Shown here: one piece after another, positions 9,938 to 49,292 of the stretch
Layout of the letters: every line of letters starts with the position of its first letter
Numbering within the stretch: position 1 is the first letter of the stretch
NCBI GenBank assembly: GCA_001701165.1
Contig: DAAP01000044.1
Span: forward strand, 2,008 to 66,007
DNA length: 64,000 nt
Source: Bacteroidales bacterium H4
GTDB lineage: Bacteria; Bacteroidota; Bacteroidia; Bacteroidales; Muribaculaceae
Direction of reading: 5' to 3'
Program-made: the position numbers and the translations under genes
Notes under the pieces: model-generated
Seen by the model: the letters and a program-made list of their open reading frames with translations, nothing else
Databases searched by the model: none
Told to the model about the DNA's origin: nothing

Positions 9938-10377
9938 GATACGATTGGTTTGTTGTTTTATGTGTTTCGGTTTCTTTGTACTAATGCTCGGTTGCTCTAA
10001 GCGTATCGAATTCCGTACCCAATATGGCATCCTCCTTTACGGCGTCCTATTGCATCTATTTTGGGCAGGCGTGAACTCCTCGGTTTTTTAGGGCAATGGA
10101 CTGCAAAGGTACGCAAAATCTCCGACCCGCCAAGCACTTTGCCAAAAAAATCGCGCCGGCATCGAAATAACGGCTCGTCAGGGACGCAATACATTGCCCT
10201 CGCGCAGCAGGAAGCTAATACGCGGAAGAACTTCGCCCGTGGGAACTCCAAAAAACAGCCAAACTTATAGGTGGTAAACCAATAGCAATCAGACAAATAA
10301 CACAAATAGACAGTAAGCAAATCGGGAATGGAGAGCGAATTACGAAAATTTTTCTTTGATAATTGGAGGGGAAGTCG

Positions 10378-10385
10378 TAACTTTG
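10378..10385 (+). promoter_or_regulatory. Bacteroidetes-type -7 promoter box (TAACTTTG)
   Basis: Exact match to TAnnTTTG, about 10 nt upstream of the first riboswitch helix. Confidence 0.45.
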
Positions 10386-10394
10386 CGGCGCAAA

Positions 10395-10581
10395 CAGGTG
10401 CACGGCCATCGGCCGTGCTTAAAAGGGAATCGGGTGTGAATCCCGAACAGTCCCGCTGCTGTGAGCCTCACGCCACTGTGCGTCAGCACATTGGCACGAC
10501 CTCGGGCATACGTCACTATACCGCTGCAGGCGGTACGGGAAGGCGTCCGAAGCCGGTCGGAGGCGAGTCAGAAGACCTGCC
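10395..10581 (+). ncRNA. Cobalamin (B12) riboswitch
   Basis: Reads CAGGTG...AAAAGGGAAtcgGGTGtgAAtCCcgaaCaGtCCCGCtgCTGT...GCCACTG...GGGAAGGC...AGTCAGAAGACCTGCC. The conserved core, the GCCACTG element and the B12 box are all present. The P1 helix CAGGT/ACCTG closes the element. Confidence 0.88.
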
Positions 10582-10792
10582 TGAGAGCAAAAATGCCGAT
10601 GCTCTGCCAAGGGCGTTATAGCGACGCCGGCTTGCGAGGACGAGCTCAGAGTCTCATCAGACCCGAAATTCCTGCCGGGAATATGGGCGCATTGCGCGCC
10701 GCGCGTTCCGGAGGATGCGGCAACAGCATCTGCGACATGTTTCACCCACGCCCTTGTCCGCCACTGCGGAAGGAGCACAACACATTCGTCAG

Positions 10793-12922
10793 ATGCCACA
10801 AACATCTAAGACATTTTTGAAAGAACACCGCGTATGCCGCCGAGTATGCGTGGCGGCCGTCCTCGCATTTGCAGCCGCCACCGCCGTGTATGCACAACCC
10901 CCCGAAGGGGCTTCATCGGTCTTGGCCGAGCGCGACAGCGCCGCCACCATTGCACGCTCGATGGCATGGAGCGACAGCATCCAGTCGCTGCACGAGCTGA
11001 TAGTGACCACGCGCCGCCCGTGGGAACCCACCGAGATTATTCCGGTGCAGACACTTGCCGGCGAGGAGTTGCGCCGTCTGTCCAGCAATAGCGTGGCCGA
11101 CGCCTTGCGCTATTTCTCGGGCGTACAGGTCAAGGATTACGGAGGCGTTGGCGGCATAAAGACCGTCAACATCCGCTCGATGGGCACCAATCATACCGGC
11201 GTAGTGTACGATGGCGTAGCCTTGGGCAATGCCCAAAACGGGCAGATAGATCTCGGGCAGTTCTCGCTGGATAATATGGAGGCGCTGTCGCTGTACAACG
11301 GACAAAAAAGTCAGATACTGCAGCCGGCACGCGACTTCGGCAACGCCGGTACAATATATATGCGCACCGCCGTGCCACAATTTAAGGGCGACGAGACATA
11401 CCACGCCCGCGCGGCAGTACGCACCGGCAGTTTTGACCTCATCAATCCCTCGGCTTTGGTTCAGCTCAAGTTGTCTCGCCGCGTAAGCGCCTCGCTCAGT
11501 GCCGAATGGCTCAATTCGTCCGGTAAATACAAATTCCGCTATCGCCGTGTCAATCCCGCCGGCGAAGTAGCCTATGACACCACGGCCACGCGTCAAAACG
11601 GCGATATCAACGCCACGCGCCTCGAGGCTTCGGTCTTCGGCAAGACATCGCACGGCAATTGGATGGCCAAGGCCTACAACTATAATAGCGAACGAGGCAT
11701 ACCCGGTGCCATCGTCAACAACGTATGGCGGCGCGGCGAACGCATTTGGGACACCAACAGCTTTATCCAAGGACATTGGCGTGCCACATACGGGCGCTGG
11801 ACCACTTTGGCCAATGCCAAGTATGCTTTCTACCGCACGCATTACGTCAACAACGATGACAAGCAAATCAAGGTGGACAACCTCTACCGCCAGCGTGAGG
11901 TCTACGTGTCCACAGCCAACCAATACGACATCATTCCCGGCAAATGGGAAGTGTCGGCCAGCTATGATTTCATGTTCAACAGCCTCGATGCAGATGTATA
12001 CGACTTTGTACGCCCCGAGCGCTATTCCAATCTGTTGTCCGCCGCCACTGCCATCACACTCGGCCGCTTCAAGGGTCAGGCCTCGGCCTTGGCCACTTTT
12101 GTCCGCGACATGCTCGAAGAGGTTCAGGACCCGCCTACGAAGCACGTTTTCACTCCGGCCGTGTACGCTTCATATGCCTTTGTAGATTGTAAAACCAAGC
12201 GCGGTTCTGATATGCTGTCTCTGCGTGCATTCTACAAGCGTTCATTTCGTATGCCCACTTTCAACGACCTATATTACGCCGATATGGGCAACTCCAAGCT
12301 CAATCCCGAGCGCGTCACCCAGTACAACGTCGGCATCGTGTACGACCATGTACGCCGCCACTCGCTGCTATCGTCCATCAAATTCAGTGCCGACGGATAT
12401 TACAACAAGGTACACGATAAGATTGTGGCCTACCCCAAGGGACAGCAATTCCGTTGGACGATGCTCAATCTGGGACTTGTGGACATCCGCGGTGTCGACA
12501 TCAGCGCCGCCGCCACCGTTACCCCGCGCCGCGATATGGACATCACCCTGCGCCTGCAATACACTTGGCAACGCGCTATAGACATTACCAATCCCGAGGA
12601 CAACTACTATCGTGACCAAATCCCATACATACCGCACCACAGCGGAAGTGCCATAGCCAACATTGCATGGCGGCGCTGGAACCTCAACTACAGTTTCATA
12701 TACGTAGGCGAGCGCTACAACCAGCAGGAAAACATCCGCTACAACTACACACAGCCCTGGTACACCAGCGATGTATCGCTGACGCGCGACTTCACCCTCG
12801 GCAAAGTCGGCCTTCGCGCCACCGTCGAAGTCAACAACCTGTTGTCCCAGGACTACGATGTTATCATCAACTACCCCATGCCCAAGCGCAACTATCGTTT
12901 TACCCTAACCGTAACGATATGA
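10793..12922 (+). CDS. btuB: TonB-dependent outer-membrane transporter, BtuB-like (B12-riboswitch controlled)
   Basis: Signal peptide ...VCVAAVLAFAAATAVYAQ. Plug-domain blocks: LHELIVTTRR, ADALRYFSGVQVKDYGGVGGIKTVNIRSMG and VVYDGVALGNAQNGQIDLGQF. A barrel of about 22 strands follows, ending ...RNYRFTLTVTI. It lies directly downstream of the riboswitch. The start is set at MPQTSKTF (10793). Confidence 0.85.
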   Translation: MPQTSKTFLKEHRVCRRVCVAAVLAFAAATAVYAQPPEGASSVLAERDSAATIARSMAWSDSIQSLHELIVTTRRPWEPTEIIPVQTLAGEELRRLSSNSVADALRYFSGVQVKDYGGVGGIKTVNIRSMGTNHTGVVYDGVALGNAQNGQIDLGQFSLDNMEALSLYNGQKSQILQPARDFGNAGTIYMRTAVPQFKGDETYHARAAVRTGSFDLINPSALVQLKLSRRVSASLSAEWLNSSGKYKFRYRRVNPAGEVAYDTTATRQNGDINATRLEASVFGKTSHGNWMAKAYNYNSERGIPGAIVNNVWRRGERIWDTNSFIQGHWRATYGRWTTLANAKYAFYRTHYVNNDDKQIKVDNLYRQREVYVSTANQYDIIPGKWEVSASYDFMFNSLDADVYDFVRPERYSNLLSAATAITLGRFKGQASALATFVRDMLEEVQDPPTKHVFTPAVYASYAFVDCKTKRGSDMLSLRAFYKRSFRMPTFNDLYYADMGNSKLNPERVTQYNVGIVYDHVRRHSLLSSIKFSADGYYNKVHDKIVAYPKGQQFRWTMLNLGLVDIRGVDISAAATVTPRRDMDITLRLQYTWQRAIDITNPEDNYYRDQIPYIPHHSGSAIANIAWRRWNLNYSFIYVGERYNQQENIRYNYTQPWYTSDVSLTRDFTLGKVGLRATVEVNNLLSQDYDVIINYPMPKRNYRFTLTVTI

Positions 12923-13014
12923 CAAATCGCGACATGGACACAAAGACGATGATACCACGTGCCGCCTCTGCGGTACGCAACTGCGGCTATAATGACACAA
13001 TAATATATAGACCT

Positions 13015-14193
13015 ATGATTCATCCCCATACGTCATTCCGACTAACGGGATGTATGATTTGTTTTCTGCTACTCATGCTATGTGCCACGAGCTGTCGAGA
13101 GGACGAGCTCGTGGTGCCGGCAGAGTATGACCCCGTGCCGGCGGTGTCGGACAGCGAGGGCCGCATACGCGGGATGTATCTGCTCAACGAAGGCAATATG
13201 GGCAGCAACAAATGCACTCTGGACTATCTTGACTACGTCACCGAGCTGTATGCCCGCAACATATACCCCGAGCGAAACCCCAATGTCATCAAGGAACTCG
13301 GCGATGTCGGCAACGATATCGCCATCTACGGCAGCAAACTCTATATCGTGGTAAATTGCAGCCATAAAGTCGAAGTGCTGGATGCGAAAACAGCCGTACG
13401 CATCGCGCAAATCGACATTCCCAATTGTCGATATATCAAATTCCACCGCGGCAAGGCCTACGTCAGCAGCTACGTCGGTCCGGTACTAATCGATCCCGAT
13501 TCGCCCAAAGGTGCGGTCTACGAGGTGGACACCACCAGCCTCAAAGTCACCGGGCGTTGCATCGTCGGATACCAGCCTGAAGAAATGGAGATTATCGATG
13601 ACTACATGTACGTCGCCAATAGCGGTGGGTATCGAGTGCCCAATTACGACAACACCGTATCCGTGATCCAGCTTATAGACTTCAAACAAGTGCGTCAGAT
13701 ACCCGTAGCTATCAACCTGCACCGCATACGCAAGGACCGGTACGGACGCCTATGGGTGACCTCGCGCGGCGACTACAACAGCGTGCCGCCACGCCTGTAC
13801 TACCTTGAGCGCGACGAAGGCTCCGGCGAAATGCGCGTGGCCGGATGTCTGGACATCGCCGTGAGCGACATGGCCATACGCGACGATAGCATGTACTACA
13901 TAGGTGTCGCATGGAGCAATTTCACCGGTACCAACACTATATCCTACGGCATAATCAACGTGCGCGACCGACAGCGCGTGGCCGACAACTTCATCACCGA
14001 CGGCACCGAACAGAACATCAAAATGCCTTACGGCATAAGCGTCCACCCCGTCACGGGAGACATCTACGTCACCGATGCCAAGAATTACGTATCCTCGGGT
14101 ACGCTCTATTGCTTCAGCCCCGACGGCAAACGCCAATGGAGTGTCCGCACAGGCGACATTCCGGCTCATATATGCTTTTACGAAAAACGATGA
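13015..14193 (+). CDS. Surface lipoprotein, YncE/DUF5074-like beta-propeller (occupies the BtuG-equivalent position)
   Basis: Lipoprotein signal MIHPHTSFRLTGCMICFLLLMLCATSC. The repeated strand patterns resemble beta-propeller lipoproteins encoded beside Bacteroidetes TonB transporters (GMYLLNEGNMGSN, KLYIVVNCSHKVEVLD, KAYVSSY, YMYVANSGG, RLWVTSRG, DIYVTDAKNY). An alternative start at 12919 would overlap the btuB stop codon (ATGA). Confidence 0.72.
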   Translation: MIHPHTSFRLTGCMICFLLLMLCATSCREDELVVPAEYDPVPAVSDSEGRIRGMYLLNEGNMGSNKCTLDYLDYVTELYARNIYPERNPNVIKELGDVGNDIAIYGSKLYIVVNCSHKVEVLDAKTAVRIAQIDIPNCRYIKFHRGKAYVSSYVGPVLIDPDSPKGAVYEVDTTSLKVTGRCIVGYQPEEMEIIDDYMYVANSGGYRVPNYDNTVSVIQLIDFKQVRQIPVAINLHRIRKDRYGRLWVTSRGDYNSVPPRLYYLERDEGSGEMRVAGCLDIAVSDMAIRDDSMYYIGVAWSNFTGTNTISYGIINVRDRQRVADNFITDGTEQNIKMPYGISVHPVTGDIYVTDAKNYVSSGTLYCFSPDGKRQWSVRTGDIPAHICFYEKR

Positions 14194-15425
14194 TGCGAAC
14201 ACCGAATAAAGGCATATTATTCATTCTGACAGCAGCGATGGCCGTCATTGTCTGCGGCTGTAACGGCGGCGACACGCCCATCGTCAGCCTCGGGCTGGAC
14301 GATTACTACCGCGTGGCACGCATGACCAAGCTCGACCTTGACCCGGCACTCACCGGACAGGACTACCGCTGGACCATCACGCGCCCAGACGGCACCGACA
14401 GCATCATCGAAGGACAACGACGTCTGGTATTCCTCACCGCCGAAGAAGGACGCTACACGCTGCGTTTCGACATCAAAGACCCCTCCGTACCCATGAGCCA
14501 TACGATGACCGTAGACGTACTTCACGAAGAAGTCGAATTCAGTCCCTACATAGCCACCGTGACCGAATATTGCCCCGCCCCGGGACAGTTTGTCAACGAG
14601 ATGCCGCGATACGATGAGGGCGATACAGCCGAGGACATGGCACGCAAGGCCGGCGAGTGCATCAGCGGCACCAACGATGTGATGATTTCGCTCGGCGCCT
14701 ACGGCGGTTACGTGACCTTTGCCTTTGACCACACCGTGGTCAACCTTCCCGGCAACGACTTCCGCATTTGGGGCAACTGCTTCTACGAAGCCACCCATCC
14801 CGAAGACCGCGGCGGCAGCGCCGAGCCGGGCATAGTAATGGTGAGCTACGACGCCAATTGCAACGGCATCGCCGATGACCCATGGTACGAGCTGGCCGGC
14901 AGCGAATACTATTCGTCCAAGACACATCACAACTACACAATTACATACAGCCGGCCCGACCCCAACGCCGAGCCGGTAGAAGACGGCGCACTCGACAATT
15001 TGTACTACATCCCATGGAAGGACAATACCGGAGCAACGGGATACGTCGCCCACAACATATTCCACGACGGCGAGTACTGGCCCAAATGGATGCCGCAGCA
15101 GACGCTGACATTCCAAGGCAGTTGCCTGGCGCCCAACGCCATAGACCGCAGCGGAGTCGGCTCCTACTACATCCTGTACAGCTACGACTGGGGCTATGTA
15201 GACAATCATCCCAACGACTATCCCGAGCTCAACAGCTTCGACATCTCCAACGCCGTAGACTCCGAAGGACGTCCCGTCAAGCTGCCCGGCGCCGACTGGA
15301 TACGCGTATACACCGCCGTCAACCAATACTGCGGATGGATTGGCGAGACTTCCACCGAGTTGAGTCGCGCCGCCGACCTCCACGTCATCGCTACTATGGT
15401 ACCTACCGCCGCCCGTCGACGCTGA
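14190..15425 (+). CDS. Surface lipoprotein of unknown function (N-terminal PKD/Ig-like module plus a ~300-aa C-terminal domain)
   Basis: Lipobox in MMRTPNKGILFILTAAMAVIVCGCNGG. The ATG overlaps the upstream stop codon (ATGA at 14190-14193). The upstream part of ORF 13911..15425 overlaps the preceding gene and was discarded. Confidence 0.7.
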   Translation: MMRTPNKGILFILTAAMAVIVCGCNGGDTPIVSLGLDDYYRVARMTKLDLDPALTGQDYRWTITRPDGTDSIIEGQRRLVFLTAEEGRYTLRFDIKDPSVPMSHTMTVDVLHEEVEFSPYIATVTEYCPAPGQFVNEMPRYDEGDTAEDMARKAGECISGTNDVMISLGAYGGYVTFAFDHTVVNLPGNDFRIWGNCFYEATHPEDRGGSAEPGIVMVSYDANCNGIADDPWYELAGSEYYSSKTHHNYTITYSRPDPNAEPVEDGALDNLYYIPWKDNTGATGYVAHNIFHDGEYWPKWMPQQTLTFQGSCLAPNAIDRSGVGSYYILYSYDWGYVDNHPNDYPELNSFDISNAVDSEGRPVKLPGADWIRVYTAVNQYCGWIGETSTELSRAADLHVIATMVPTAARRR

Positions 15426-15479
15426 AATATAACGGCCGATATCGTAAGCATACCGATATATATTATAATCCTAAGTAAA

Positions 15480-16889
15480 ATGAAAAAATTCTACAACAAG
15501 AGCCTGTTGGCTGCCTTTACCCTTGCCATGGTAGCCGCACCTGCTGTTTGGGCCGAAGAAGACCTCTCGGGAGGTTTCTTCTACCTCAACGAAGACTGGT
15601 ACGGACACAACAACTCCACTATCAACTACTTGCGCCCGGACGACCCGGACGGCAACTACTGGGAGTATCGCGTATTTCAGACCCGCAATCCGGGCAAGGA
15701 ACTCGGATGTACCGCACAAGACGGTATCGCCTGGGGCGGCCGCCTGTACCTCATCTCCAAGCAGGAGAAAGACCCCGGAGCATCCGTCACCGGCGCCCGT
15801 ATCACCGTATGCGATTACACTACAATGAAATGTATAGCCCAACTGACCAATATCGACCCATCCGGTGCACGTTGTGACGGCCGCGGTGTCGTAGGTGTTT
15901 CGGCCGACAAGGTGTACATATCTTCGACCAACGGTGTATGGGTATTCGACACCCACACCAATACCGTAATCAAGCAGATTGCCGGAACCGAAAACCCCAA
16001 TGGCAATAGCGATCAGGATGCCACCAACCCCTCCGGCTCGCTGTATCACGGACAATGCGGCGCTATGGTCCTGAGCGGTAAATACGTATTCATCGCTCAC
16101 CAAACCTACGGCGTGCAAGTCGTGGATGCAGCCACCGACCAAATAGTCAAGACCATCGACTTCAAACAACTCGGCGATGACATAGGCGTAGGTTCGCTTA
16201 TAAAGGATCGCAACGGTGTCATCTGGGCCGGCGTCAACGGCAGCATTTCGTCCAGCTATGGCGAGACAATGTCATACGTCGTACGCATCGACCCGGTAGC
16301 TCTCGAGCCCGAATTCATCGAGCTTGACGCATCCGTACCCCAGCCCACCAACTCGTGGTACGCTTGGACACCCGATTGTATGTGCGCCAGCATGAAAAAC
16401 GACTACATCTACTGGAAAGGCGATGCAGGATACTTCATGTGGTACCAGTCCTCTCAGGTAGTACGCTTCAACACCGTCACCCGCCAAGCCGAAACCATCA
16501 TCGAAACCGGCGGAACATACACCAGCAAGGACCGTTACATCTACGGTTCGTCGATGCGCATCCATCCCGTGACGGACGAAATATACATAGCCGTCAATCA
16601 GGACACCGGCGTCAACAAATATTGGACACGCCGTTACAGTTCCTCGGGCGAACTTCTCAAAGAGTACAATATGGTCAAGAGCTACTGGTTCCCCTCGCTG
16701 CCCATCTTCACCGAAAATGACGATAAGAGCACTACCGGCATAGGCGACATCACCATCCCCAACACCGACATCAACGCCGCACCCGAATACTTCGACCTGC
16801 AAGGCCGTCGTATCAATCCGGAGAACGCACCCGCAGGCATATACATCGAACGCCGCGGTGCAAAAACTCAAAAAATACTACTGCGCTAA
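15480..16889 (+). CDS. Secreted beta-propeller protein (same family as 13015..14193) with a T9SS C-terminal sorting domain, paralogue 1
   Basis: Signal peptide MKKFYNKSLLAAFTLAMVAAPAVWA. Contains GGFFYLNEDWYGHNNSTINYL, RLYLISKQ, KVYISSTNGVWVFD, YVFIAHQTYGVQVVD, EIYIAV and YWFPSLPIF. The CTD ends ...YFDLQGRRINPENAPAGIYIERRGAKTQKILLR. Confidence 0.75.
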   Translation: MKKFYNKSLLAAFTLAMVAAPAVWAEEDLSGGFFYLNEDWYGHNNSTINYLRPDDPDGNYWEYRVFQTRNPGKELGCTAQDGIAWGGRLYLISKQEKDPGASVTGARITVCDYTTMKCIAQLTNIDPSGARCDGRGVVGVSADKVYISSTNGVWVFDTHTNTVIKQIAGTENPNGNSDQDATNPSGSLYHGQCGAMVLSGKYVFIAHQTYGVQVVDAATDQIVKTIDFKQLGDDIGVGSLIKDRNGVIWAGVNGSISSSYGETMSYVVRIDPVALEPEFIELDASVPQPTNSWYAWTPDCMCASMKNDYIYWKGDAGYFMWYQSSQVVRFNTVTRQAETIIETGGTYTSKDRYIYGSSMRIHPVTDEIYIAVNQDTGVNKYWTRRYSSSGELLKEYNMVKSYWFPSLPIFTENDDKSTTGIGDITIPNTDINAAPEYFDLQGRRINPENAPAGIYIERRGAKTQKILLR

Positions 16890-16901
16890 TCAGATATTCT
16901 A

Positions 16902-16942
16902 CGGGAAGACGGTCCACTGACACAACCCGGGTCGTCTTCCCG
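16902..16942 (+). other. Intercistronic stem-loop with a perfect 10-bp stem (CGGGAAGACG / CGTCTTCCCG) and no U-tract
   Basis: The inverted repeat can be read directly in the 78-nt gap between genes 15480..16889 and 16968..17918. Confidence 0.6.
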
Positions 16943-16967
16943 ATATATTCACATATACCCGATTTAT

Positions 16968-17918
16968 ATGGTTAAACAGCTACTCCTTACAGCAATCTGC
17001 TCCATAGCACTGTCGTGCGGAGCTACCACTCTCGACTTCGACAAAATCACCCATTGGGCCGGCGAGGGCGATGCACGCGCCGCACTTGTTATGCTCTTCG
17101 ACGGACAGAAGACCGCACAAGTATGGGGCTTCCGCTGGAATAGCTCCACGTCCAAGCCCTCCGGGTCCGATATGGTGAAAGCCATAGCCGGAGCCTCCAC
17201 CGACTTTGACGCAATGATCCAATGGACCAACTTCGGCTATACTCTCTCCGGCGCCGGCTTCAGCTTTGACCACGCGGTGATGAACTACCTGCGCTACGAC
17301 TTCGAAGGTGCCGTCGATGACGGCAACATCTCCTTCGGCTACTATACACCCAACACGGGTATGGGTCAGACGGGCGCCCCCGGCGCTGCCACACAGGAAA
17401 TATGCAACCGCGCCATCGAAGAAGCCAGGAAGACACACATCATCGAACATCCCCTGAGCCACCGCGAGTACGGATATAGCGCCTACGACTACGACCACTG
17501 GCAGTTGGATGCCAATGCACCCCAAAACATACTATGGCGTGCCGGATGGTACAAAGGATACTGGAGCTACTGGGTGGGAGACAAAACCCTTGACGAAATG
17601 GGCTACTCCGGTCTGGGAATGTCTTCTGTCGAGCTGCAGGACGGGGCGGTCAACGGCTGGGCCTACTACAACTTCCAAGACGATGATTACGGATCGACAG
17701 AAATCGACTGGAACGTTGAATTGGACTACGACCACCTAAGCGTCAATGCCATACAGGAGCTGAAACCGGTGATAGAAAACTCCGATGATGCGGTCGCGAC
17801 AGTATATACACTCTCCGGCGTATGCTTGGGCCGATATGCCGACCGCCGCGACAACCTCCCCGCCGGCATATACATCGTGCGTACGTCCTCGGGCGCTGCA
17901 TACAAGGTGCGTCTCTAA
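16968..17918 (+). CDS. Secreted or cell-surface protein of unknown function with a T9SS C-terminal sorting domain
   Basis: Signal peptide with a possible lipobox: MVKQLLLTAICSIALSCG. The C-terminus is ...VYTLSGVCLGRYADRRDNLPAGIYIVRTSSGAAYKVRL. The central segment is GYWSYWVGD...GLGMSSVELQDGAVNGWAYY. Confidence 0.68.
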   Translation: MVKQLLLTAICSIALSCGATTLDFDKITHWAGEGDARAALVMLFDGQKTAQVWGFRWNSSTSKPSGSDMVKAIAGASTDFDAMIQWTNFGYTLSGAGFSFDHAVMNYLRYDFEGAVDDGNISFGYYTPNTGMGQTGAPGAATQEICNRAIEEARKTHIIEHPLSHREYGYSAYDYDHWQLDANAPQNILWRAGWYKGYWSYWVGDKTLDEMGYSGLGMSSVELQDGAVNGWAYYNFQDDDYGSTEIDWNVELDYDHLSVNAIQELKPVIENSDDAVATVYTLSGVCLGRYADRRDNLPAGIYIVRTSSGAAYKVRL

Positions 17919-18024
17919 ACAAAAACGCACACACATCTTAAAATAACATCATATTATGGACCCGGTTTTGGGTATGAATCTGAATCATACTCAGGCCAAT
18001 CACTAAAACAAATTTCAAACCTTT

Positions 18025-21000
18025 ATGAATTACAAATCATTACTCATCGGAGCATTAGGCTGCTTCATTGCGCTGACAGCCAATGCCCGCGACATCGAGG
18101 TAGACGGCTTGTACTACTCGACCAAGAGCGATGGCACCGCCACGGTGCGCGCCCCTCTGTCATCCGAGACAAAGCCCTCGGGCGACATCGTAATTCCGGC
18201 ATCTATCACCTATGACGGCAAAGACTACAAGGTGACCGGCATCGATGACAACGCATTCGCCTATGGTTATCAAATCACCGGCCTCGAAATTGAGGAAGGC
18301 ATCGAGACCATCGGCAAAAACGCCTTCTTCAACTGCTCGGGATTGACCGAACTGTCGTTCCCGGCATCAGTAACAGAGATTGGTGATTATGCGTTCAACT
18401 CGTGTACAAAAGTGACTTACATCGACTTCCCTACCGGTCTTAAGGTCGCAGGCCCGATATTCCAATCGTGCATCAATCTTACAAATGTAAGATTCAACTG
18501 GAAGTGCGTCGTAACCGAACTCAACGGCACCTTCCAAGACTGCCGCGTACTTCCGCGCATATCCATCCCATCAACTGTCGTTTCAATCGGAGACAACACA
18601 TTCGACGGCTGCAAAAGCCTTGCAGAAGTCAGCTTCTCAGGCAGCAACCTGAAGACTATCGGCGACTGGGCTTTCAACGGCAACAAGTTCACGACTCTTG
18701 AAATACCCGAAGGCGTCGAAGAAATCGGCGATATGGCTCTCGGCGCAATGAACGGCGACTGGAACACCAACAAGACAATGACGTCTGTCATACTGCCTTC
18801 GACACTGAAAAAAATAGCTTACAATGCCTTCAATAACTGCGGCGCCCTGACCGACCTGACCATCAAGCCCGCCGACGAACCCCTGAAGATTGTCAGCTTT
18901 AGCGACTACTACGTTAAGATGTTCCTCTCGTGTCCGGAAGACCTGTCTTCAACGACCTGCCCGCTGAAGACCCTTGTACTGGGTCGTCAGCTTGTAACGG
19001 AGTCATCCGGCACCGATATCACCGACGATGTCTTTTCGGTAAAGAGCGCTTTGGAAGACCTGTTCTTCTGCGGCAGCGTCACAAAGACTCCAAACATCTC
19101 CAATGCAAGCAACGTAAAGTATATTACCGTTGCCACTACAGCCATACCCACTGCCGGGAACTTCAATGACGGCATCAAGGCTACGGCATTGGTGACAGTT
19201 CCTGCCGGCGGTCGCGAAGCATATTCGGCTGTCGACGGCTGGAAAGACTTCACATCGCTCGCCAATCCTTCCGGCGTCGAACTCTCCATCGCGGATCTCA
19301 CCCCTGACGCCAACGGCGTGTACGCAATCGGCCTGAAAAAATCCTACGCATTGACAGCCACAATCAACGATGAGGATACCTCCGCCAAAAACCTGACATA
19401 CACGGCAGGTGTCAACAGCGTCTTGAGCTATAGCACTTATAACGGCAAAGTCACCTCCGGGACCAAGGGCGACGCATACATCTACGTCGAAAGTAGCGAG
19501 AACCCTGCCGTACGCGGCGTCCTCGTAGCCAAAGTAGCTCCTATCAAACCCGTGACCTCCATCACCCTCGATGGCGTCGTTGACGGCGTACTGCGCGTAC
19601 CCTACAACTCGATGATTGCCGCCAACCCCGTCATCGAGCCTGCCGATGCCGACCTCACCGACTTTACAATCTCCATCGAAGACCCCACCATGTGCACCAT
19701 CTATGCAGCCAAGGCCTTCAACCCCACTCGCAACTTCTACGAGCTGACGACCTTCAAGCTCGGCGAAACCAACGTCACCTACACCGCAGCCGATGGCAGC
19801 GGCACACAACTCACCTTCAAACTCGTTGTCGAAGACCGCGACCGCGAAACTCCCATCGACTACACCAAGGGTATGTTCTGGCTCAACGAGGAGTGGTTCG
19901 GCCACTGCAGCGGCTCTATCAACTTCGTGGGCGATGACTACACCTTCACCGGCAAAGTTTACGAGCGCGAGAATCCCTTCCAAGCCTTCGGCGCTACTTC
20001 GCAATTTGCAACAGTATATGCCGACCGCCTCGTCGTAATGTCCAAGCAGCCCCGTGACGGCGGCGACCTCCGCGGCACCGAAGCCGGCGGTGGACGCGTC
20101 GTAATTGCTGACGCCAAGACCCTCAAGAAAATCGCCGCTTTCGACGAAATCGGCGGTGACGGACGTGCCGCTTGCGGCGTAGGTCCCGACAAATTCTACC
20201 TGACACACAACGCCGGCGTGCGCGTATGCCGTGCTCAGGGTGACACATACGTCCTCGATGCTGCCGACATCGCCGGTATCGGCGGAGGCACCAACCTCTA
20301 TGCCAATCAGATGGGCGACATCATTGCCGCAGGCAAATATGCCTTCGTTGTACAGCAGGGCAAGGGCCTCCACGTAATTGACACAGCCTCTGACACCTAC
20401 GTCAAGACCATCGAAGAGTCCAACGCTCAAGGCGTAGTCCTCGCTGCCGATGGCAACGTATGGTTCATGGCCACAAAGAAACTCTACTGCATCGACCCGC
20501 AGACTGCCGATGTACTCAAGGAAGTCGCTATCAACCAAAGCGTAGCCTGCCAATGGGGCTCATGGCGTCACACCAACTTCCTGGCTGCCAAGAAAAAGAA
20601 CGTTCTATACTGGATGGACGGCGGCTCATGGTCCGGCTCGGGCAAGATCTACGCCTGGGATATGACCGGCGACGTACCCACCGAACCGCTCTTTACCCTC
20701 GGTAAACGCGAAGGTATGAACGGCAGCACTCAGAGCCAATACGGCACTATCGGCTATGATGATGCCAACGACCGCCTGATGCTGGCCACAACTCACGGAG
20801 CATCTTCCAACTATCGCTACAATTGGTACTACTTCGTAGACGGCTCCACCGGCGAAGAGCTCAAGAGCTTCGCACTGACCCCGTACTACTGGTTCCCCGC
20901 TATGCCCGTCAACCCCGACCGCGCCGAAGTAGTCAGCGATATCGATAAGATTGACCTTGACAACTACAACGATCCCAAGACCGTTGACCTGACCGACCAC

Positions 21001-21357
21001 TTCACCGATGCCGATGACGTCGACTCCGAAATCTCGCTGTCCATCGTTCCGGCCAATGACACTCAGCTCGAAGACATCGCCGATGTCACCATCGAAGGCA
21101 AACAGTTGACCATCACGCCTAAATCCTTTGGCGATGCCACACTGCGTCTGCGCTCGGTATCGCGCGGCCACGTGGCTTACCACGACATCGCAATCAAGAT
21201 TGCCAAGGTAGGCGTGGACGACGTTGCCGTTGATACCAACGACTCGGCAGTCGAGTACTTCAACCTGCAAGGTGTACGCGTCGATGCAGACAACCTGACC
21301 CCCGGCATCTACGTACGCCGCCAGGGCAATAAGGCCGTTAAAGTCATCATCAAGTAA
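18025..21357 (+). CDS. Large cell-surface protein: BspA-type leucine-rich repeats, Big_2-like Ig domains, a DUF5074-like beta-propeller and a T9SS C-terminal sorting domain
   Basis: LRR_5-type repeats (ITYDGKDYKVTGIDDNAFAYGYQITGLEIEEGIETIGKNAFFNCSGLTELSFPASVTEIGDYAFNSC...). The propeller module (GMFWLNEEWFGHCSGSINF, RLVVMSKQ, KFYLTHNAGVRV, YAFVVQQGKGLHVID, YYWFPAMPV) is collinear with the two ~468-aa paralogues. The CTD ends ...VEYFNLQGVRVDADNLTPGIYVRRQGNKAVKVIIK. Confidence 0.8.
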   Translation: MNYKSLLIGALGCFIALTANARDIEVDGLYYSTKSDGTATVRAPLSSETKPSGDIVIPASITYDGKDYKVTGIDDNAFAYGYQITGLEIEEGIETIGKNAFFNCSGLTELSFPASVTEIGDYAFNSCTKVTYIDFPTGLKVAGPIFQSCINLTNVRFNWKCVVTELNGTFQDCRVLPRISIPSTVVSIGDNTFDGCKSLAEVSFSGSNLKTIGDWAFNGNKFTTLEIPEGVEEIGDMALGAMNGDWNTNKTMTSVILPSTLKKIAYNAFNNCGALTDLTIKPADEPLKIVSFSDYYVKMFLSCPEDLSSTTCPLKTLVLGRQLVTESSGTDITDDVFSVKSALEDLFFCGSVTKTPNISNASNVKYITVATTAIPTAGNFNDGIKATALVTVPAGGREAYSAVDGWKDFTSLANPSGVELSIADLTPDANGVYAIGLKKSYALTATINDEDTSAKNLTYTAGVNSVLSYSTYNGKVTSGTKGDAYIYVESSENPAVRGVLVAKVAPIKPVTSITLDGVVDGVLRVPYNSMIAANPVIEPADADLTDFTISIEDPTMCTIYAAKAFNPTRNFYELTTFKLGETNVTYTAADGSGTQLTFKLVVEDRDRETPIDYTKGMFWLNEEWFGHCSGSINFVGDDYTFTGKVYERENPFQAFGATSQFATVYADRLVVMSKQPRDGGDLRGTEAGGGRVVIADAKTLKKIAAFDEIGGDGRAACGVGPDKFYLTHNAGVRVCRAQGDTYVLDAADIAGIGGGTNLYANQMGDIIAAGKYAFVVQQGKGLHVIDTASDTYVKTIEESNAQGVVLAADGNVWFMATKKLYCIDPQTADVLKEVAINQSVACQWGSWRHTNFLAAKKKNVLYWMDGGSWSGSGKIYAWDMTGDVPTEPLFTLGKREGMNGSTQSQYGTIGYDDANDRLMLATTHGASSNYRYNWYYFVDGSTGEELKSFALTPYYWFPAMPVNPDRAEVVSDIDKIDLDNYNDPKTVDLTDHFTDADDVDSEISLSIVPANDTQLEDIADVTIEGKQLTITPKSFGDATLRLRSVSRGHVAYHDIAIKIAKVGVDDVAVDTNDSAVEYFNLQGVRVDADNLTPGIYVRRQGNKAVKVIIK

Positions 21358-21379
21358 CACCAGCAACACACTAATCCGA

Positions 21380-22783
21380 ATGACCTTCAGACATTTATTG
21401 TCTGCCTCAATCCTTACAGCCACTGTCGCCGCACTATCGGCGACAGCGGCTGCCGAGGATTTGGACGGCGGATTTTTTATCCTCAACGAAGACTGGTACG
21501 GACATCAGAATTCCACCATCAACTACCTGCGTCCGGACGACCCTGACGGAGTATACTGGGATTACCGTGTATTCCAAAGCCGCAATCCGGGCAAGGAACT
21601 CGGATGCACCGCCCAGCACGGCATCGCTTGGGGCGGACGCCTGTATCTCATAGCCAAACAAGAAAAGGACCCCGGAGCATCTATCGTCGGCGCACGTATC
21701 ACCGTGTGCGATGCCAAGACAATGGAGTGCTTAGCCCAGCTCACCGAGATTGACCCCTCGGGCAAGCGTTGCGACGGACGCGGCGCTTGCGGCGTATCGC
21801 TCGAAAAGGTGTACATATCCTCGTCCAACGGCATTTGGATTTTCGATACTCGAAGCCTGACGATTACCGGGCAGATACCCGGCACGGAGAACCCCAACGG
21901 CACCGGCGGAGCCACTACGGACCCCTCGGGAGCTCTTTACAAAGGACAATGCGGAACTATGGTGCCGGCTGACGGCCTCGTATTTGCCGCACACCAGCAG
22001 TCCGGACTTCTGATAATAGACCCGAACACGGATAGAGTCATCAAGACAATATCGATGGATGTCGTCCAAGACGGCGCCGGCATAGGCTCGATAGTCAAGG
22101 ATCGCACCGGCATCCTGTGGATTTCGACAGACAAGAACATCCGCGGCACCGGCAATCCGCTGCGCAAGCTGGTACGTCTCAATCCCAAGACGCTGGAGTA
22201 TACCATCGTCACCCTCCCCGATGACGTACTGCCGCCCAACAACTCGTGGTACGCCTGGACACCCGATGCCTTCTGCGCAAGTGCCAAGCAAGACTACCTC
22301 TACTGGCGTGCAAATTCCGGCAAAGGGCAAGCCGCTTGGTTCAACGGAGTATACCTGTATCGCTTCAACACCGTCACCCAAAAAGCCGAAGTCATACGCA
22401 ACTTCAAGGAAGAAGGCGCCGGATGGAGCATCTACGGCTGCTCGCTGCGCGTACATCCCGTCACCGACGAAATATATATGTCCCTGTATCAGGGCAACCA
22501 AAAGACCACGTATATCACGCGTCGCTGCGATGCCGATGGCAATACCATCAAGGATTACCCGATGATAGCCAACTATTGGTTCCCCTCGCTGCCGATATTC
22601 ACCGAGGACGACCCCTATCCGCTGACTGTAAGCGACATCACTATTGACGACACCACCTCGGCTCCCGTCGAGTACTACAACCTCCAGGGCATACGTGTAG
22701 CAGCCGAAGACGGCAGCTCACTCCCCGCAGGCGTGTACATCCGCCGCCAAGGCACACATACATCAAAAATTCTCGTCCGCTAA
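21380..22783 (+). CDS. Secreted beta-propeller protein with a T9SS C-terminal sorting domain, paralogue 2
   Basis: Collinear with 15480..16889 (GGFFILNEDWYGHQNSTINYLRPDDPDG, RLYLIAKQEKDPGAS, KVYISSSNGIWIFD, YWFPSLPIFTEDD). The CTD ends ...YYNLQGIRVAAEDGSSLPAGVYIRRQGTHTSKILVR. Confidence 0.75.
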   Translation: MTFRHLLSASILTATVAALSATAAAEDLDGGFFILNEDWYGHQNSTINYLRPDDPDGVYWDYRVFQSRNPGKELGCTAQHGIAWGGRLYLIAKQEKDPGASIVGARITVCDAKTMECLAQLTEIDPSGKRCDGRGACGVSLEKVYISSSNGIWIFDTRSLTITGQIPGTENPNGTGGATTDPSGALYKGQCGTMVPADGLVFAAHQQSGLLIIDPNTDRVIKTISMDVVQDGAGIGSIVKDRTGILWISTDKNIRGTGNPLRKLVRLNPKTLEYTIVTLPDDVLPPNNSWYAWTPDAFCASAKQDYLYWRANSGKGQAAWFNGVYLYRFNTVTQKAEVIRNFKEEGAGWSIYGCSLRVHPVTDEIYMSLYQGNQKTTYITRRCDADGNTIKDYPMIANYWFPSLPIFTEDDPYPLTVSDITIDDTTSAPVEYYNLQGIRVAAEDGSSLPAGVYIRRQGTHTSKILVR

Positions 22784-22819
22784 GCGCATACAGTATTTTA
22801 TTCGCTTGTCATCATTTTC

Positions 22820-22861
22820 GTAATGGCGTTCTCGTTTGTGTACGCCATTACGTTTATTTTT
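22820..22861 (+). terminator. Rho-independent terminator ending the riboswitch-led gene block
   Basis: Perfect 10-bp stem GTAATGGCGT/ACGCCATTAC with a 12-nt loop, followed by GTTTATTTTT. Confidence 0.65.
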
Positions 22862-22868
22862 CCCAAAG

Positions 22869-22884
22869 GACATTCAGGAATGTC
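22869..22884. promoter_or_regulatory. 16-bp palindrome GACATTC-AG-GAATGTC (candidate operator)
   Basis: Perfect 7-bp arms, located 19 bp upstream of the -7 box of the restriction-modification operon. Confidence 0.35.
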
Positions 22885-22902
22885 ATATAAGAGAAATTTT
22901 GT

Positions 22903-22910
22903 TATCTTTG
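22903..22910 (+). promoter_or_regulatory. Bacteroidetes-type -7 promoter box (TATCTTTG)
   Basis: Exact TAnnTTTG match, 64 nt upstream of the restriction-enzyme ATG. Confidence 0.45.
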
Positions 22911-22973
22911 CAGTATCCTTGCGCAACTTCATCAGCGCATACACAAGTCAAATCCACAAGCACACAAGCAATT

Positions 22974-23714
22974 ATGAGAGACTATAAGCTGGGGTTCATT
23001 TCAAACGAAAACATTTTCAACCATGTTAAAACCACGGTTGAAAGCTATCGCAGGGAGATAACCCTTGACCAGTTTAACCACAACATAGTAGACCCGATAA
23101 AGCTCACTTTTGACTCAAAGATTTATGGGAAGAGCTTACATCAAGCAATCGAGGATGAATGCTTCAGACAGATTGATAAGAGCAACACTAATAACATCGG
23201 CTATTTCCACCAAAATCTATTTAAGTATGCCGGCAATGGATGGTCTGTTCCAAAGCAAGGCTTTGATGTAGAAAATAAAGAATTGCATATTTTTGCCGAG
23301 TTAAAGAATAAACATAATACGATGAACTCCGCATCTTCGCAAAAGACATACATGAAGATGCAGGCAAAATTACTTGATGACGATGAGGCCACGTGTTATC
23401 TTGTCGAAGTGATTTCTAAATGCTCTCGCGATGATGTATGGAGAATATCTCTTGATAACCAACAGCGTGCGCATAAGCATATCAGAAGGATATCTATGGA
23501 CAAGTTCTACGAACTAGTCTTTGGCGACTCACAGGCATTCTATAACCTGTGTATGTCATTGCCCTCTATAATTGAGGATGTAGTGGGTGACAATAAGAAT
23601 CTTATGTATAAAAACACTGTTTACACGGAACTGTCAAAAACGCATAAAGATTTGCTTACATCATTATACCTGCTTGCATTCAGAACCTACGAAGGATTCC
23701 AAGTTTTACAATAA
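22974..23714 (+). CDS. Type II restriction endonuclease (PD-(D/E)xK; possibly Eco47II-family)
   Basis: D-x(n)-E-x-K candidate in GFDVENKELHIFAELKNKHNTMN. It lies 12 nt upstream of an m5C methyltransferase on the same strand, in an AT-rich patch. The family assignment is from memory of Eco47II-family annotations, not from a search. The start is set at MRDYKLGF (22974). Confidence 0.55.
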   Translation: MRDYKLGFISNENIFNHVKTTVESYRREITLDQFNHNIVDPIKLTFDSKIYGKSLHQAIEDECFRQIDKSNTNNIGYFHQNLFKYAGNGWSVPKQGFDVENKELHIFAELKNKHNTMNSASSQKTYMKMQAKLLDDDEATCYLVEVISKCSRDDVWRISLDNQQRAHKHIRRISMDKFYELVFGDSQAFYNLCMSLPSIIEDVVGDNKNLMYKNTVYTELSKTHKDLLTSLYLLAFRTYEGFQVLQ

Positions 23715-23726
23715 ATAACTGTATTT

Positions 23727-29832: not shown

Positions 29833-29891
29833 GCCCAAGGGCATCCGCCGCGCATCCTGCCCATAGAGATTTATTTACTAATTTTGCAAAT

Positions 29892-49225: not shown

Positions 49226-49292
49226 ATTCGAGGTAAGAATTTGTGGTTTGTAAATTTTTGAGAAGGCGGACAATATTTCCCATGAGCCAAAG

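Follow-up and report, generated by a model that had tools for sequence, protein, structure and literature searches.

Within the window, by which we mean the whole 64,000-nt stretch of DNA that was analyzed, seven genes on one strand probably form an operon by which an uncultured Muribaculaceae species of the human gut takes up corrinoids (the vitamin B12 family), and the most likely explanation of the locus is a B12-responsive operon with a T9SS-tailed candidate capture layer. Sequence comparison showed that the first layer (genes 1-3) is a Bacteroides-type outer-membrane core, consisting of a BtuB1 orthologue with BtuG-like and BtuH-like lipoproteins. The second layer (genes 4-7) comprises two free BtuK-type propellers, one propeller fused to LRR and Ig-like domains, and one DUF4430-like protein. 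A first-pass annotation of this DNA had described one promoter, one cobalamin riboswitch, seven same-strand genes and an end terminator, and Rfam, a pattern scan and RNA folding located every one of these elements where it had placed them.

The block is headed by a Bacteroidota-type promoter on the + strand (10355-10385), recognized by reading the sequence and by pattern scan, with a -33 TTTG at 10355-10358, a 19-nt spacer and the -7 box TAACTTTG at 10378-10385. The cobalamin riboswitch aptamer (10379-10598, +) was a full-length match to Rfam RF00174 (91.8 bits against a gathering score of 31.5; E 1.8e-21), and it was the only Rfam match in the window. The presumed expression platform region occupies 10599-10792, between the aptamer and the start of gene 1, and a sequence and fold scan found no terminator-like site between the aptamer and the start codon. 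Genes 1 and 2 overlap by 4 nt or lie 65-92 nt apart, according to which start is used; genes 2 and 3 overlap by 4 nt, and the remaining junctions measure 54 nt (3/4), 78 nt (4/5), 106 nt (5/6) and 22 nt (6/7). An intrinsic terminator closes the block at 22819-22861 (+), with a GC-rich stem of 10-11 bp (~22819-22852) followed by GTTTATTTTT (fold dG -18.7 kcal/mol).

The riboswitch might govern btuB only, or btuB-btuG-btuH, leaving genes 4-7 as a separate, B12-insensitive unit. The 54-106 nt gaps before genes 4, 5 and 6 could house non-consensus promoters, and operon 1 of B. thetaiotaomicron contains a strong internal promoter. However, TAACTTTG was the sole + strand TAnnTTTG box between 6527 and 22903, and the next one, at 22903, lies beyond the block end, bearing out the earlier claim that the block holds no further box; even with one mismatch allowed, none of the block's intergenic gaps contained such a box on the + strand. 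The stable hairpin 3' of gene 4 (16902-16942, +), already noticed in the first pass, is real, with a 14-bp stem and an RNA fold dG of -22.2 kcal/mol, and it could terminate transcription. Yet it lacks a T-run, and no such hairpin was present in the BtuH-gene 5 spacer of a sister species without gene 4 (L008). A weak terminator and an RNA-stabilizing element that came with gene 4 are both conceivable, and the hairpin could attenuate transcription of genes 5-7. A separate downstream unit is also at odds with the gene order, which is kept in ~80 species, and with related loci in which the downstream module stands apart from btuB and has its own cobalamin riboswitch. We therefore regard a riboswitch confined to the first genes as very unlikely, and a single B12-responsive operon as the better reading.

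The conservation data come from a locus survey by tblastn and nhmmer covering ~80 species-representative genomes, mostly labelled as Muribaculaceae or Porphyromonadaceae MAGs. The surveyed loci share the one-strand order riboswitch, TonB-dependent transporter, BtuG, BtuH, gene 5, (LRR)K and K. In 39 surveyed loci the sequence reached more than 450 nt beyond the 5' end of the transporter gene, and all of these had the riboswitch; Rfam confirmed it in 8 related loci. Cobalamin riboswitches directly in front of T9SS-tailed genes, for which the first-pass annotation had proposed a survey, were found in the relatives: one locus (L006) has a second riboswitch ahead of btuH-gene 5-K-K, and in another (L020), where an MFS gene lies upstream and btuB is missing, a 90-bit riboswitch directly precedes gene 5-LRR/K-K. 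The layout is the standard Muribaculaceae B12 locus and not a one-off.

The core genes resemble their B. thetaiotaomicron counterparts closely. Gene 1 (10793-12922, +; alternative start 10715; 709 aa by independent gene call) carries the Pfam domains Plug and TonB_dep_Rec_b-barrel of a TonB-dependent corrinoid transporter, and it matched BtuB1 (PDB 8blw_A) over residues 63-707 with an E value of 5.2e-127. Gene 2 (13015-14193, +; alternative starts 12919 and 13075) encodes a BtuG-like seven-bladed propeller surface lipoprotein, in which a lipobox and export signal could be read by eye (LMLCATSC, then the acidic REDE). It matched the propeller part of BtuGH (8blw_B residues 48-363, E 5.6e-37), 8ptf and 8ptd (9e-37), BtuG2 entries (~1e-16) and DUF5074 (2.7e-18). 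Several BtuG homologues were named 'surface layer protein' by their PDB depositors. Gene 3 (14190-15425, +), a BtuH-like surface lipoprotein, combines an Ig/PKD-like N-terminal part with a BtuH B12-binding domain, and it matched 8blw_B residues 394-660 (E 9.5e-61) and 7biz (2.3e-39), which we take to be BtuH2; PKD_3 is present in its orthologues. On these matches genes 1, 2 and 3 are assigned as the orthologues of BtuB1, BtuG and BtuH, in agreement with the first reading of a BtuB-like transporter, a propeller lipoprotein and a second lipoprotein.

Genes 4-7 encode proteins with ordinary signal peptides and no lipobox, and all four end in a shared C-terminal tail. Three of them are DUF5074 propellers, which with gene 2 make up the four related propellers that had been recognized in the locus. 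Gene 4 (15480-16889, +; DUF5074 E 6.9e-111) codes for a BtuK-type propeller that starts with a Sec signal peptide and ends in a short T9SS-type tail; its identity to gene 7 is 56 %, and its LNEDWYGH...CTAQ...SKQ motif fits the BtuK1 contact residues. It was absent from L008, the sister species (91 % identical), and is a lineage-specific extra copy. Gene 7 (21380-22783, +; DUF5074 E 8.8e-133) is the second free BtuK-type propeller and likewise has a Sec signal peptide and the short T9SS-type tail. Gene 6 (18025-21357, +; 1110 aa; LRR_5 E 1.1e-42, DUF5074 E 5.5e-121) is the copy fused to an LRR module, as the first reading had it. Its signal peptide is followed by BspA-type LRR_5 repeats and Ig-like domains; then come the BtuK-type DUF5074 propeller (residues 615-963), one more Ig-like domain and the short T9SS-type tail, an architecture that recurs in most related loci. 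The gene 6 propeller shares 26 % identity with gene 7 and retains LNEEWFGH, TSQ and SKQ.

In sequence, genes 4, 6 and 7 come nearest to BtuK1 (PDB 9S6C), a lipoprotein that binds B12; gene 7 matched it with E 7e-12 as a single sequence and 1.5e-18 as a family profile. The accessory binders had been thought to be duplicated; related, tailed propellers are indeed there, but they are of BtuK type and did not arise by recent duplication of the BtuG in this locus, genes 2 and 7 being only 24 % identical. The proposed structural relation to BtuG was supported by the predicted structure of gene 7 (AF2; pLDDT 85.5, pTM 0.81), which places the tailed propellers closest to B12-bound BtuG2 and BtuK1. B12 propellers of B. 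thetaiotaomicron accounted for all of its 12 best Foldseek matches, with E values from 1.5e-17 to 5.6e-12 and, for chains consisting of the propeller alone, TMt 0.71-0.80; generic Kelch propellers ranked after them (E ~1e-9, TMt <0.65). The BtuK1 positions E23, W25, H28, T60, 62 and K76 correspond to E37, W39, H42, T77, Q79 and K93 of gene 7 (+12 offset), and BtuK1 E77 to Q94. All mapped contact positions were invariant across 60 family members, and they cover both corrin and nucleotide contact residues.

The fourth tailed protein, gene 5 (16968-17918, +), is not a propeller but a secreted protein of a different, unnamed family resembling DUF4430. Gene 5 itself had no Pfam or PDB sequence match. 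Foldseek ranked the beta-domains of transcobalamin and intrinsic factor, together with 3u7z, at the top for its AF2 model (pLDDT 85.3), with E 0.18, probability 0.9 and TMt ~0.7. An exhaustive HMM search found 1137 relatives; among 54 that were scanned, 21 contained DUF5074, 14 Por_Secre_tail (canonical CTDs, best E 2e-14) and 3 DUF4430, the last abutting or overlapping the gene 5 N-module. These lines of evidence, individually weak, point to a divergent DUF4430 (transcobalamin beta-domain-like) fold with a ~100-aa insertion, and make gene 5 a candidate new corrinoid binder.

Genes 4-7 could instead be B12-co-regulated adhesins, structural or vesicle-related factors that do not bind corrinoids. 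BtuK2 and BtuL sit in B. thetaiotaomicron B12 operons without binding B12; the BspA-type LRR adhesin module of gene 6 and the 'surface layer protein' label of the deposited BtuG homologues fit such a role as well. On the other hand, BtuK1 binds B12 and all proteins of its operon are B12-repressed, and the tailed propellers have a complete binding loop where that of BtuK2 is truncated. The invariant contact positions, the nearest structures, all of them B12-bound propellers, and the predicted fold of gene 5 with its frequent fusion to DUF5074 likewise argue for corrinoid binding, and we consider a non-binding role unlikely.

The first-pass annotation had assigned T9SS CTDs to all four proteins and had named failure in CTD models as evidence against this. 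Homology stood at the profile level, but none of the four tails reached the curated cut-offs of TIGR04183 (23 bits) or PF18962: in scoring against these models gene 5 obtained 15.5 bits and gene 7 13.1-14.6 bits (TIGR04183), and the tails of genes 4 and 6 had no match to either. The tails are ~45-55 aa long with only four predicted strands, lacking the first strand(s) of the canonical CTD, including the N-terminal PNP strand, and are shorter than any CTD that we know to have an experimentally shown function. No T9SS core genes were found among the window ORFs scanned, and no published description of a Muribaculaceae T9SS in the literature searched. The tails might thus be degenerate remnants or another C-terminal module, the proteins being periplasmic or exposed by another route with no T9SS capture layer, an explanation that we find improbable. 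The tail profile aligned with canonical, Pfam-passing Por_Secre_tail domains (hhalign 95.7 %, E 8.7e-9), and T9SS CTDs made up 6 of its 10 top PDB matches, including HBP35, RgpB and the 75-residue endonuclease I chain 8glk_D, presumably a T9SS cargo CTD. Some tails in the alignment match TIGR04183, DUF6383 or PF18962, and long and short tails alternate among orthologues, some of which, at ~75 aa, have full CTD length. Within the window the tail ends only 7 of 187 stop-to-stop ORFs of at least 100 aa, all 7 being large proteins with N-terminal signal-like sequences. Besides genes 4-7 these are a cohesin/dockerin protein and a 1552-aa protein, both giant and secreted, and the adjoining endonuclease I, whose tail passes TIGR04183 (24.5 bits). 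In the related loci, spanning ~80 species, 149 of 152 K-type ORFs have retained the tail; its presence there and on unrelated cargo speaks for a functional sorting signal. The tail is thus homologous to canonical type-A T9SS sorting domains at the family or profile level only, and that of genes 4-7 is likely a shortened type-A T9SS C-terminal sorting tail. T9SS tails on B12 binders are already in print: the sorting domain IPR026444 was reported on 229 of 824 BtuJ-family B12 binders (Juodeikis et al. 2025), which is prior art for a link of which the first-pass annotation knew no description.

Taken together, these data suggest the following model. Low intracellular corrinoid would permit expression of the whole block through the riboswitch. 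By analogy with B. thetaiotaomicron, BtuG would cap BtuB as a lid. The proteins of genes 4-7 would have their tails cleaved and would then be anchored at the cell surface or set free. The propellers would bind corrinoids through the conserved loop NE(D/E)W(Y/F)GH and the positions T..Q and K.Q, as in BtuK1, and hand them to BtuH and BtuG, and onward to BtuB. The LRR module of gene 6 may tether its binder to other surfaces, a possible parallel to BtuL, the L-domain-like lipoprotein of the B. thetaiotaomicron operon. Whereas BtuK of B. thetaiotaomicron has a lipid anchor, genes 4, 6 and 7 combine a plain signal peptide with a T9SS tail, which would thereby replace the lipid anchor and N-terminal PKD stalk used by the same binder family in Bacteroides, a genus that, to our knowledge, has no T9SS. 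The tailed propellers, with invariant BtuK1 contacts and under a riboswitch, are candidate B12-capture proteins, and so is gene 5.

The cobalamin riboswitch (RF00174) was located by Rfam at 10379-10598 on the plus strand, scoring 91.8 bits against a gathering score of 31.5 (E 1.8e-21). Its aptamer was complete (model positions 1-189 of 189), and it was the sole Rfam family matched in the whole 64-kb window. The aptamer lies 194 nt upstream of the first gene of the block, a BtuB1 orthologue in the same orientation, and no terminator-like site was seen between the aptamer and the start codon. A -7 box of the Bacteroidota type, TAACTTTG (10378-10385, plus strand), overlaps the 5' edge of the riboswitch, and a TTTG lies 19 nt upstream of this box. 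Promoter matches of the sigma-70 type were disregarded because Bacteroidota use different boxes. A pattern scan found the next plus-strand TAnnTTTG only at 22903, past the block, and the intergenic gaps inside the block held no such box even when one mismatch was allowed. A 4-nt overlap joins genes 2 and 3, and the gaps thereafter are 54, 78, 106 and 22 nt. The block is closed by a terminator at about 22819-22861 (plus strand), a 10-11 bp hairpin followed by GTTTATTTTT (dG -18.7 kcal/mol); it was verified by folding, a consensus terminator scan having missed it, presumably because its loop exceeds the 8-nt limit of that scan. The layout proposed in the first-pass annotation, with one riboswitch, one promoter, seven plus-strand genes, their junctions and one end terminator, was therefore borne out in all particulars. 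The hairpin that it had placed after gene 4, at 16902-16942 (plus strand), is also real (14 bp, dG -22.2), though it lacks a T-run.

Directly after the operon terminator we found an Eco47II-type restriction endonuclease and a C5 cytosine methyltransferase (22836-25067, with the likely genes at about 22975-25067). This pair is absent from L088, a strain with an identical gene 7, which marks it as a strain-variable island. Other neighbours are a plus-strand gene with Schlafen AlbA_2, HATPase_c_4 and Fic-like C-terminal domains (29808-31355), truncated in strain L089, and a minus-strand histidine-utilisation cluster (47738-53002) of aromatic amino acid (histidine) ammonia-lyase, urocanase and formiminotransferase-cyclodeaminase.

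The first three genes correspond to known B12 uptake proteins. Gene 1 contains Plug and barrel domains in Pfam and matched BtuB1 (PDB 8blw_A) over its whole length (residues 63-707, E 5.2e-127). It scored far under the cut-offs of the proteobacterial equivalog models TIGR01779 and NF007926 (95 vs 599.7 bits), as expected because it is a BtuB of the Bacteroides clade. Gene 2 matched the propeller half of 8blw_B (residues 48-363) at E 5.6e-37 and the BtuG2 entries of the PDB at E ~1e-16. It lies directly downstream of btuB and, read by eye, has a lipobox (...ATSC) followed by an acidic REDE, so that in sequence and placement it corresponds to a BtuG, a propeller surface lipoprotein. Gene 3, also with a lipoprotein-like signal when read by eye, matched the other half of 8blw_B (394-660) with its residues 119-398 (E 9.5e-61) and matched 7biz, which we take to be BtuH2, at E 2.3e-39; its orthologues match PKD_3. 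The 8blw_B chain is the BtuGH fusion protein of operon 1 of B. thetaiotaomicron. Because genes 2 and 3 match its two halves, the window splits into two overlapping genes what is a single BtuGH in B. thetaiotaomicron.

Genes 4, 6 and 7 encode DUF5074 propellers (E 7e-111, 5.5e-121 and 8.8e-133, respectively). The first-pass annotation held that the propellers of this locus are structurally related to BtuG, and this was checked on the AlphaFold2 model of gene 7 (pLDDT 85.5, pTM 0.81). The model passed the check, since its 12 best PDB matches in Foldseek were all B12 propellers of B. thetaiotaomicron: BtuG2 entries (E 1.5e-17 to 1.7e-16, TMt 0.75-0.80), BtuK1 in entry 9S6C (E 3e-15, TMt 0.76) and BtuG1/BtuGH entries (E 2e-12 to 6e-12, TMt 0.44-0.71). 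Generic Kelch propellers came next (E ~1e-9, TMt <0.65). The same annotation also derived the tailed propellers from duplication of the BtuG of the locus, and that part failed. Gene 2 and gene 7 share only 24 % identity and the tailed propellers are closest to BtuK1 by sequence, and the reading of them as recent copies of the BtuG of the same locus was rejected for these reasons. The only solved relative found by sequence was 9S6C, at E 7e-12 with gene 7 and at E 1.5e-18 with a 60-sequence family profile. Genes 4, 6 and 7 are thus BtuK-type proteins, not copies of the locus's BtuG. Among themselves, genes 4 and 7 are 56 % identical and the gene 6 propeller is 26 % identical to gene 7.

Entry 9S6C is BtuK1 (BT_1486) with bound cyanocobalamin, and the contacts reported for it are E23, W25 and H28 in the loop 22-32, together with T60, residue 62, K76, E77 and N102 (2026 review, PMC13616437). 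With an offset of +12 between chain index and residue number, six named contacts fell on the correct letters in the 9S6C chain. Under this offset, the residue that the review calls Asn-62 is Gln in the deposited chain A. Mapped onto gene 7, the contacts, N102 excepted, became E37, W39, H42, T77, Q79, K93 and Q94; six are identical, E77 is replaced by Q, and all are invariant in the 60-sequence family alignment. Genes 4 and 6 have the same contact residues as gene 7. The binding loop is full length in the tailed propellers, and in BtuK2, a non-binder, it is cut to four residues (PMC13616437).

The tailed propellers depart from BtuK in how they would be anchored. None of the signal peptides of genes 4 and 7, or of the 120 relatives closest to them, had a lipobox cysteine for the lipid anchor expected of a BtuK. 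In these proteins the propeller begins right after the signal peptide, and a C-terminal tail stands in place of the PKD domain and lipid anchor. Gene 6 also carries three stretches of LRR_5 (PF13306, BspA-type), at 145.3 bits against a gathering score of 27.7. Gene 4 is an extra copy restricted to one lineage. Neither it nor the hairpin after it occurs in L008, a sister species that is 91 % identical (spacer at 5704-5764 of L008), and the 16902-16942 hairpin probably arrived together with this extra propeller gene.

We then considered the tails that end genes 4-7, which the first-pass annotation had called T9SS C-terminal sorting domains (CTDs). These genes and 120 orthologues have ordinary N-terminal signal peptides and no lipobox, and the four proteins end in the pattern ...(Y/F).L.G..V...L.(A/P)GIYI.R.G....K(I/V)...., which resembles the ...Y.L.G..V...G.Y...K... 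of type-A CTDs. The curated models TIGR04183 and PF18962 have cut-offs of 23 and 27 bits. With single tails, TIGR04183 gave 15.5 bits for gene 5 and 13.1-14.6 bits for gene 7 (cut-off 23) and no match for gene 4 or gene 6, and PF18962 matched none of the four. Scans of single tails against NCBIfam and Pfam at E values up to 10 likewise gave sub-threshold matches or none, so the question of the tails was decided at the profile level. When 32 tails were searched, TIGR04183 matched 7 (best 1.1e-5) and DUF6383 (for which P. gingivalis PG2216 carries the annotation of a putative domain for T9SS targeting) matched 3 (2.9e-5). Against the PDB, six of the ten best matches of the tail profile were T9SS CTDs: HBP35, four RgpB entries and 8glk_D, a 75-residue endonuclease I chain that we take to be the CTD of a T9SS cargo. 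Alignment of the tail profile by hhalign with seven canonical CTDs that pass the Pfam model gave a probability of 95.7 % (E 8.7e-9), covering template columns 17-74 of 75. The CTD assignment therefore stands as homology at the profile level, but all four proteins miss the curated cut-offs.

The tails are about 45-55 aa long and, compared with type-A CTDs (TIGR04183/PF18962, DUF6383; RgpB, HBP35), are without the N-terminal PNP strand and one strand in the middle. Some orthologues have tails of about 75 aa, and the short tails align to these with gaps at the N-terminal and middle segments of the long ones. Like type-A CTDs, the tails sit at the extreme C-terminus of unrelated proteins that carry a Sec signal, and they seem to be shared as modules among cargo genes. 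Exactly 7 of the 187 long ORFs in the window end in the tail, namely genes 4-7 and three others. One of the three, an 834-aa protein with endonuclease I and fn3 domains (7526-10030, minus strand), lies next to the B12 operon and is transcribed divergently from it, and has a longer tail that passed TIGR04183 with 24.5 bits; the curated models would call no other protein in the window a T9SS cargo. The others are giant secreted proteins with short tails on the plus strand, one of 1552 aa with weak propeller matches (39005-43663) and one of 1805 aa with cohesin, dockerin, GLUG and M26-like matches (53782-59199). The final ~110 nt of gene 6 (21248-21357) and of the 1552-aa gene (43554-43663), which encode the tails, are ~87 % identical, and the DNA upstream is unrelated. 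The tail thus behaves as a portable module, which suggests that recombination or gene conversion moves tails from one cargo gene to another. From these results we concluded that the tails of genes 4-7 are, by homology, shortened type-A CTDs. No T9SS core gene was found among the ORFs scanned in the window and in flanks of up to 10 kb, and literature searches for T9SS machinery in Muribaculaceae or Muribaculum returned nothing specific. The tail profile retrieved only 25 short fragments from a set of 5.8 billion proteins, which gave nothing on the cargo repertoire or on PorU/PorZ.

Gene 5 (16968-17918, plus strand) had no Pfam, NCBIfam or PDB sequence match of its own. Searching its profile against PDB sequences gave chance matches to ribosomal S16 and, for the tail only, weak matches to the RgpB CTD. 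The AlphaFold2 model (pLDDT 85.3) best matched in Foldseek beta-domains, those of transcobalamin (human and rat) and of intrinsic factor, together with the bacterial entry 3u7z. These matches score weakly (E 0.18, probability 0.87-0.91, TMt ~0.7), with about 100 residues inserted. The domain shared by such carriers, DUF4430 (PF14478), is the C-terminal domain of vertebrate B12 carriers; it was not matched in gene 5 or in its 31 close homologues. A word-indexed search suggested an orphan family of 34 members for gene 5. This was an index artefact, since an exhaustive HMM search with the domain alone returned 1137 cluster representatives, 123 of them at E <1e-30. Many of these relatives are large proteins with 2-7 copies of the N-terminal module. 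Relatives P0155-P0301 show the domain of gene 5 to be a widespread module with neither a name nor a Pfam family of its own.

We scanned 54 of the HMM relatives of gene 5 against Pfam. DUF5074 was present in 21 of the 54 (best E 6e-121) and the canonical CTD, Por_Secre_tail, in 14 (best E 2e-14). Big_2 was found in 8 (best E 1.2e-59), LRR_5 in 7 (best E 2.3e-166), DUF4430 in 3 (best E 1.5e-15) and SQHop_cyclase_C in 1 (best E 2.7e-07). The three relatives with DUF4430 contain repeats, and their DUF4430 matches abut or overlap the N-terminal module of gene 5. The single SQHop_cyclase_C match may parallel the alpha-barrel domain of transcobalamin. Gene 5 resembles the beta-domain of transcobalamin, intrinsic factor and haptocorrin in the best alignment of its predicted fold, in the DUF4430 of its relatives and in its B12 context, and differs from it in the missing DUF4430 match, the insertion, the T9SS-type tail and the poor Foldseek E-value. 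These data are suggestive of a divergent DUF4430-like protein. Gene fusion, synteny and the riboswitch are likewise suggestive of a functional link between gene 5 and the BtuK-type propellers. We also considered gene 5 as the equivalent of BtuJ (DUF4465) by homology; this was rejected, as it had no Pfam or PDB sequence match and its predicted fold is different.

The closest homologues are labelled Muribaculaceae. The best genome match was the human-gut MAG UMGS259, labelled 'uncultured Porphyromonadaceae bacterium', with 99 % amino-acid identity for gene 7, and 235 blocks in the assembly collection contained the exact gene 7 protein. Scanning one genome per species gave 411 relatives, and the best 80 loci were examined with tblastn and nhmmer. 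The dominant order among these 80, all on one strand, was riboswitch, TonB-dependent transporter, BtuG, BtuH, gene 5, a BtuK-type propeller with or without LRR, and a further BtuK-type propeller. The riboswitch was matched in each of the 39 loci whose sequence extends beyond 450 nt upstream of the transporter gene, and Rfam confirmed it in eight related loci. The tail was present on 149 of the 152 complete BtuK-type ORFs of the related loci. In the locus L006 a second riboswitch (3803-3952) lies between btuG and btuH, and in L020 a 90-bit riboswitch (1867-2050) directly precedes gene 5, the LRR propeller and the second propeller, with an MFS gene upstream and no btuB. These two layouts suggest that the tailed genes are B12-regulated even when uncoupled from btuB. 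Four public MAG contigs that bear the locus (L010, L037, L067 and L071) go under the names Roseburia faecis, Staphylococcus sp. or Pseudoflavonifractor sp., probably through mistakes in binning or labelling.

The nearest known system is Btu operon 1 of B. thetaiotaomicron (BT_1486-BT_1491), which encodes BtuK1, BtuK2, BtuH1, BtuB1, BtuGH and BtuJ1 (Abellon-Ruiz 2023; Juodeikis 2025; PMC13616437). The two share four protein families, control by a cobalamin riboswitch, a BtuB1-type transporter, a BtuG propeller with a BtuH B12 domain, and DUF5074 BtuK-type propellers with the BtuK1 contacts; both have several paralogous binders in one operon, and the relay would work alike. The Muribaculaceae locus differs in its host and gene order and in having BtuG and BtuH as two genes overlapping by 4 nt instead of one fusion. 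Its BtuK-type proteins number three, one of them fused to LRR_5 and Ig domains, and they carry a Sec signal and a T9SS-type tail instead of a lipobox and PKD domain. It has no BtuJ (DUF4465) and has the DUF4430-like gene 5 instead. The LRR fusion of gene 6 may parallel BtuL, an 'L-domain-like' lipoprotein of B. thetaiotaomicron, which we note as a lead.

Juodeikis et al. (2025) proposed that the BtuJ family (DUF4465/IPR027828) is extracellular, and among 824 members they counted IPR026444 in 229 and a lipobox in 275, never both. The idea of T9SS-tailed B12 binders is thus not wholly new, given these 229 proteins. The first-pass annotation knew of no described T9SS-dependent B12 scavenging system. 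Literature searches for a link between the T9SS and B12 uptake also found nothing specific, but tailed binders of the BtuJ family had already been counted, so that the claim of novelty holds in part. The tailed BtuJ proteins and the tailed proteins of the present locus are alike as known or candidate extracellular B12 binders of Bacteroidota and in a swap between lipid anchor and CTD. They differ in fold, a jelly roll in BtuJ and a propeller or DUF4430-like fold here, and tailed BtuJ is known as a count of domain co-occurrence, without locus context, riboswitch link or described system. The new elements here are the BtuK-type cargo, its setting in an operon, the conservation across the family and the family of gene 5.

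A mechanism can be proposed in which low corrinoid would derepress the whole block. Genes 4-7 would be exported first by Sec and then by the T9SS, after which the tail would be removed and the proteins attached to the surface or released. The outer binders would capture corrinoid and hand it inward to the BtuG, which would act as a lid on BtuB. We consider it possible, if rather doubtful, that in Muribaculaceae as a family the lipoproteins and vesicles used by Bacteroides have given way to a T9SS-exported corrinoid capture layer, in which the BtuK-type propellers and the gene 5 binder act as corrinophores. Released or surface-attached, these proteins would collect corrinoids at a distance, may strip them from host carriers or competitors, and would deliver them to BtuG-BtuB. 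Such a layer would resemble hemophore-like capture (P. gingivalis HusA and HmuY; BtuJ-decorated vesicles), where a binder outside the cell or on its surface feeds a TonB-dependent transporter; it would differ in ligand and folds, and its binders may be released or may stay attached to the surface. Juodeikis (2025) likened the vesicles of B. thetaiotaomicron to siderophores. If the corrinophore proposal were true, it would establish a first role of the T9SS in acquiring a nutrient vitamin, along with a new family of proteins that bind B12.

Gut communities are shaped by competition for corrinoids, and the system of B. thetaiotaomicron, which depends on lipoproteins and vesicles, is the only well-studied one in Bacteroidota. 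Muribaculaceae are dominant in the mouse gut and common in humans. At the level of sequence, our data show that members of this family appear to use the same BtuB-BtuG-BtuH core, coupled to T9SS-tailed candidate binders and to a transcobalamin-beta-like protein. Because curated T9SS-CTD models miss the short tails that are widespread in Muribaculaceae, T9SS cargo in the family is probably under-annotated. If confirmed, these results would give the T9SS a role in vitamin acquisition, would make the enigmatic BtuK family an outer capture or relay layer with an interchangeable mode of anchoring, and would make the gene 5 module a new and widespread candidate B12 binder.
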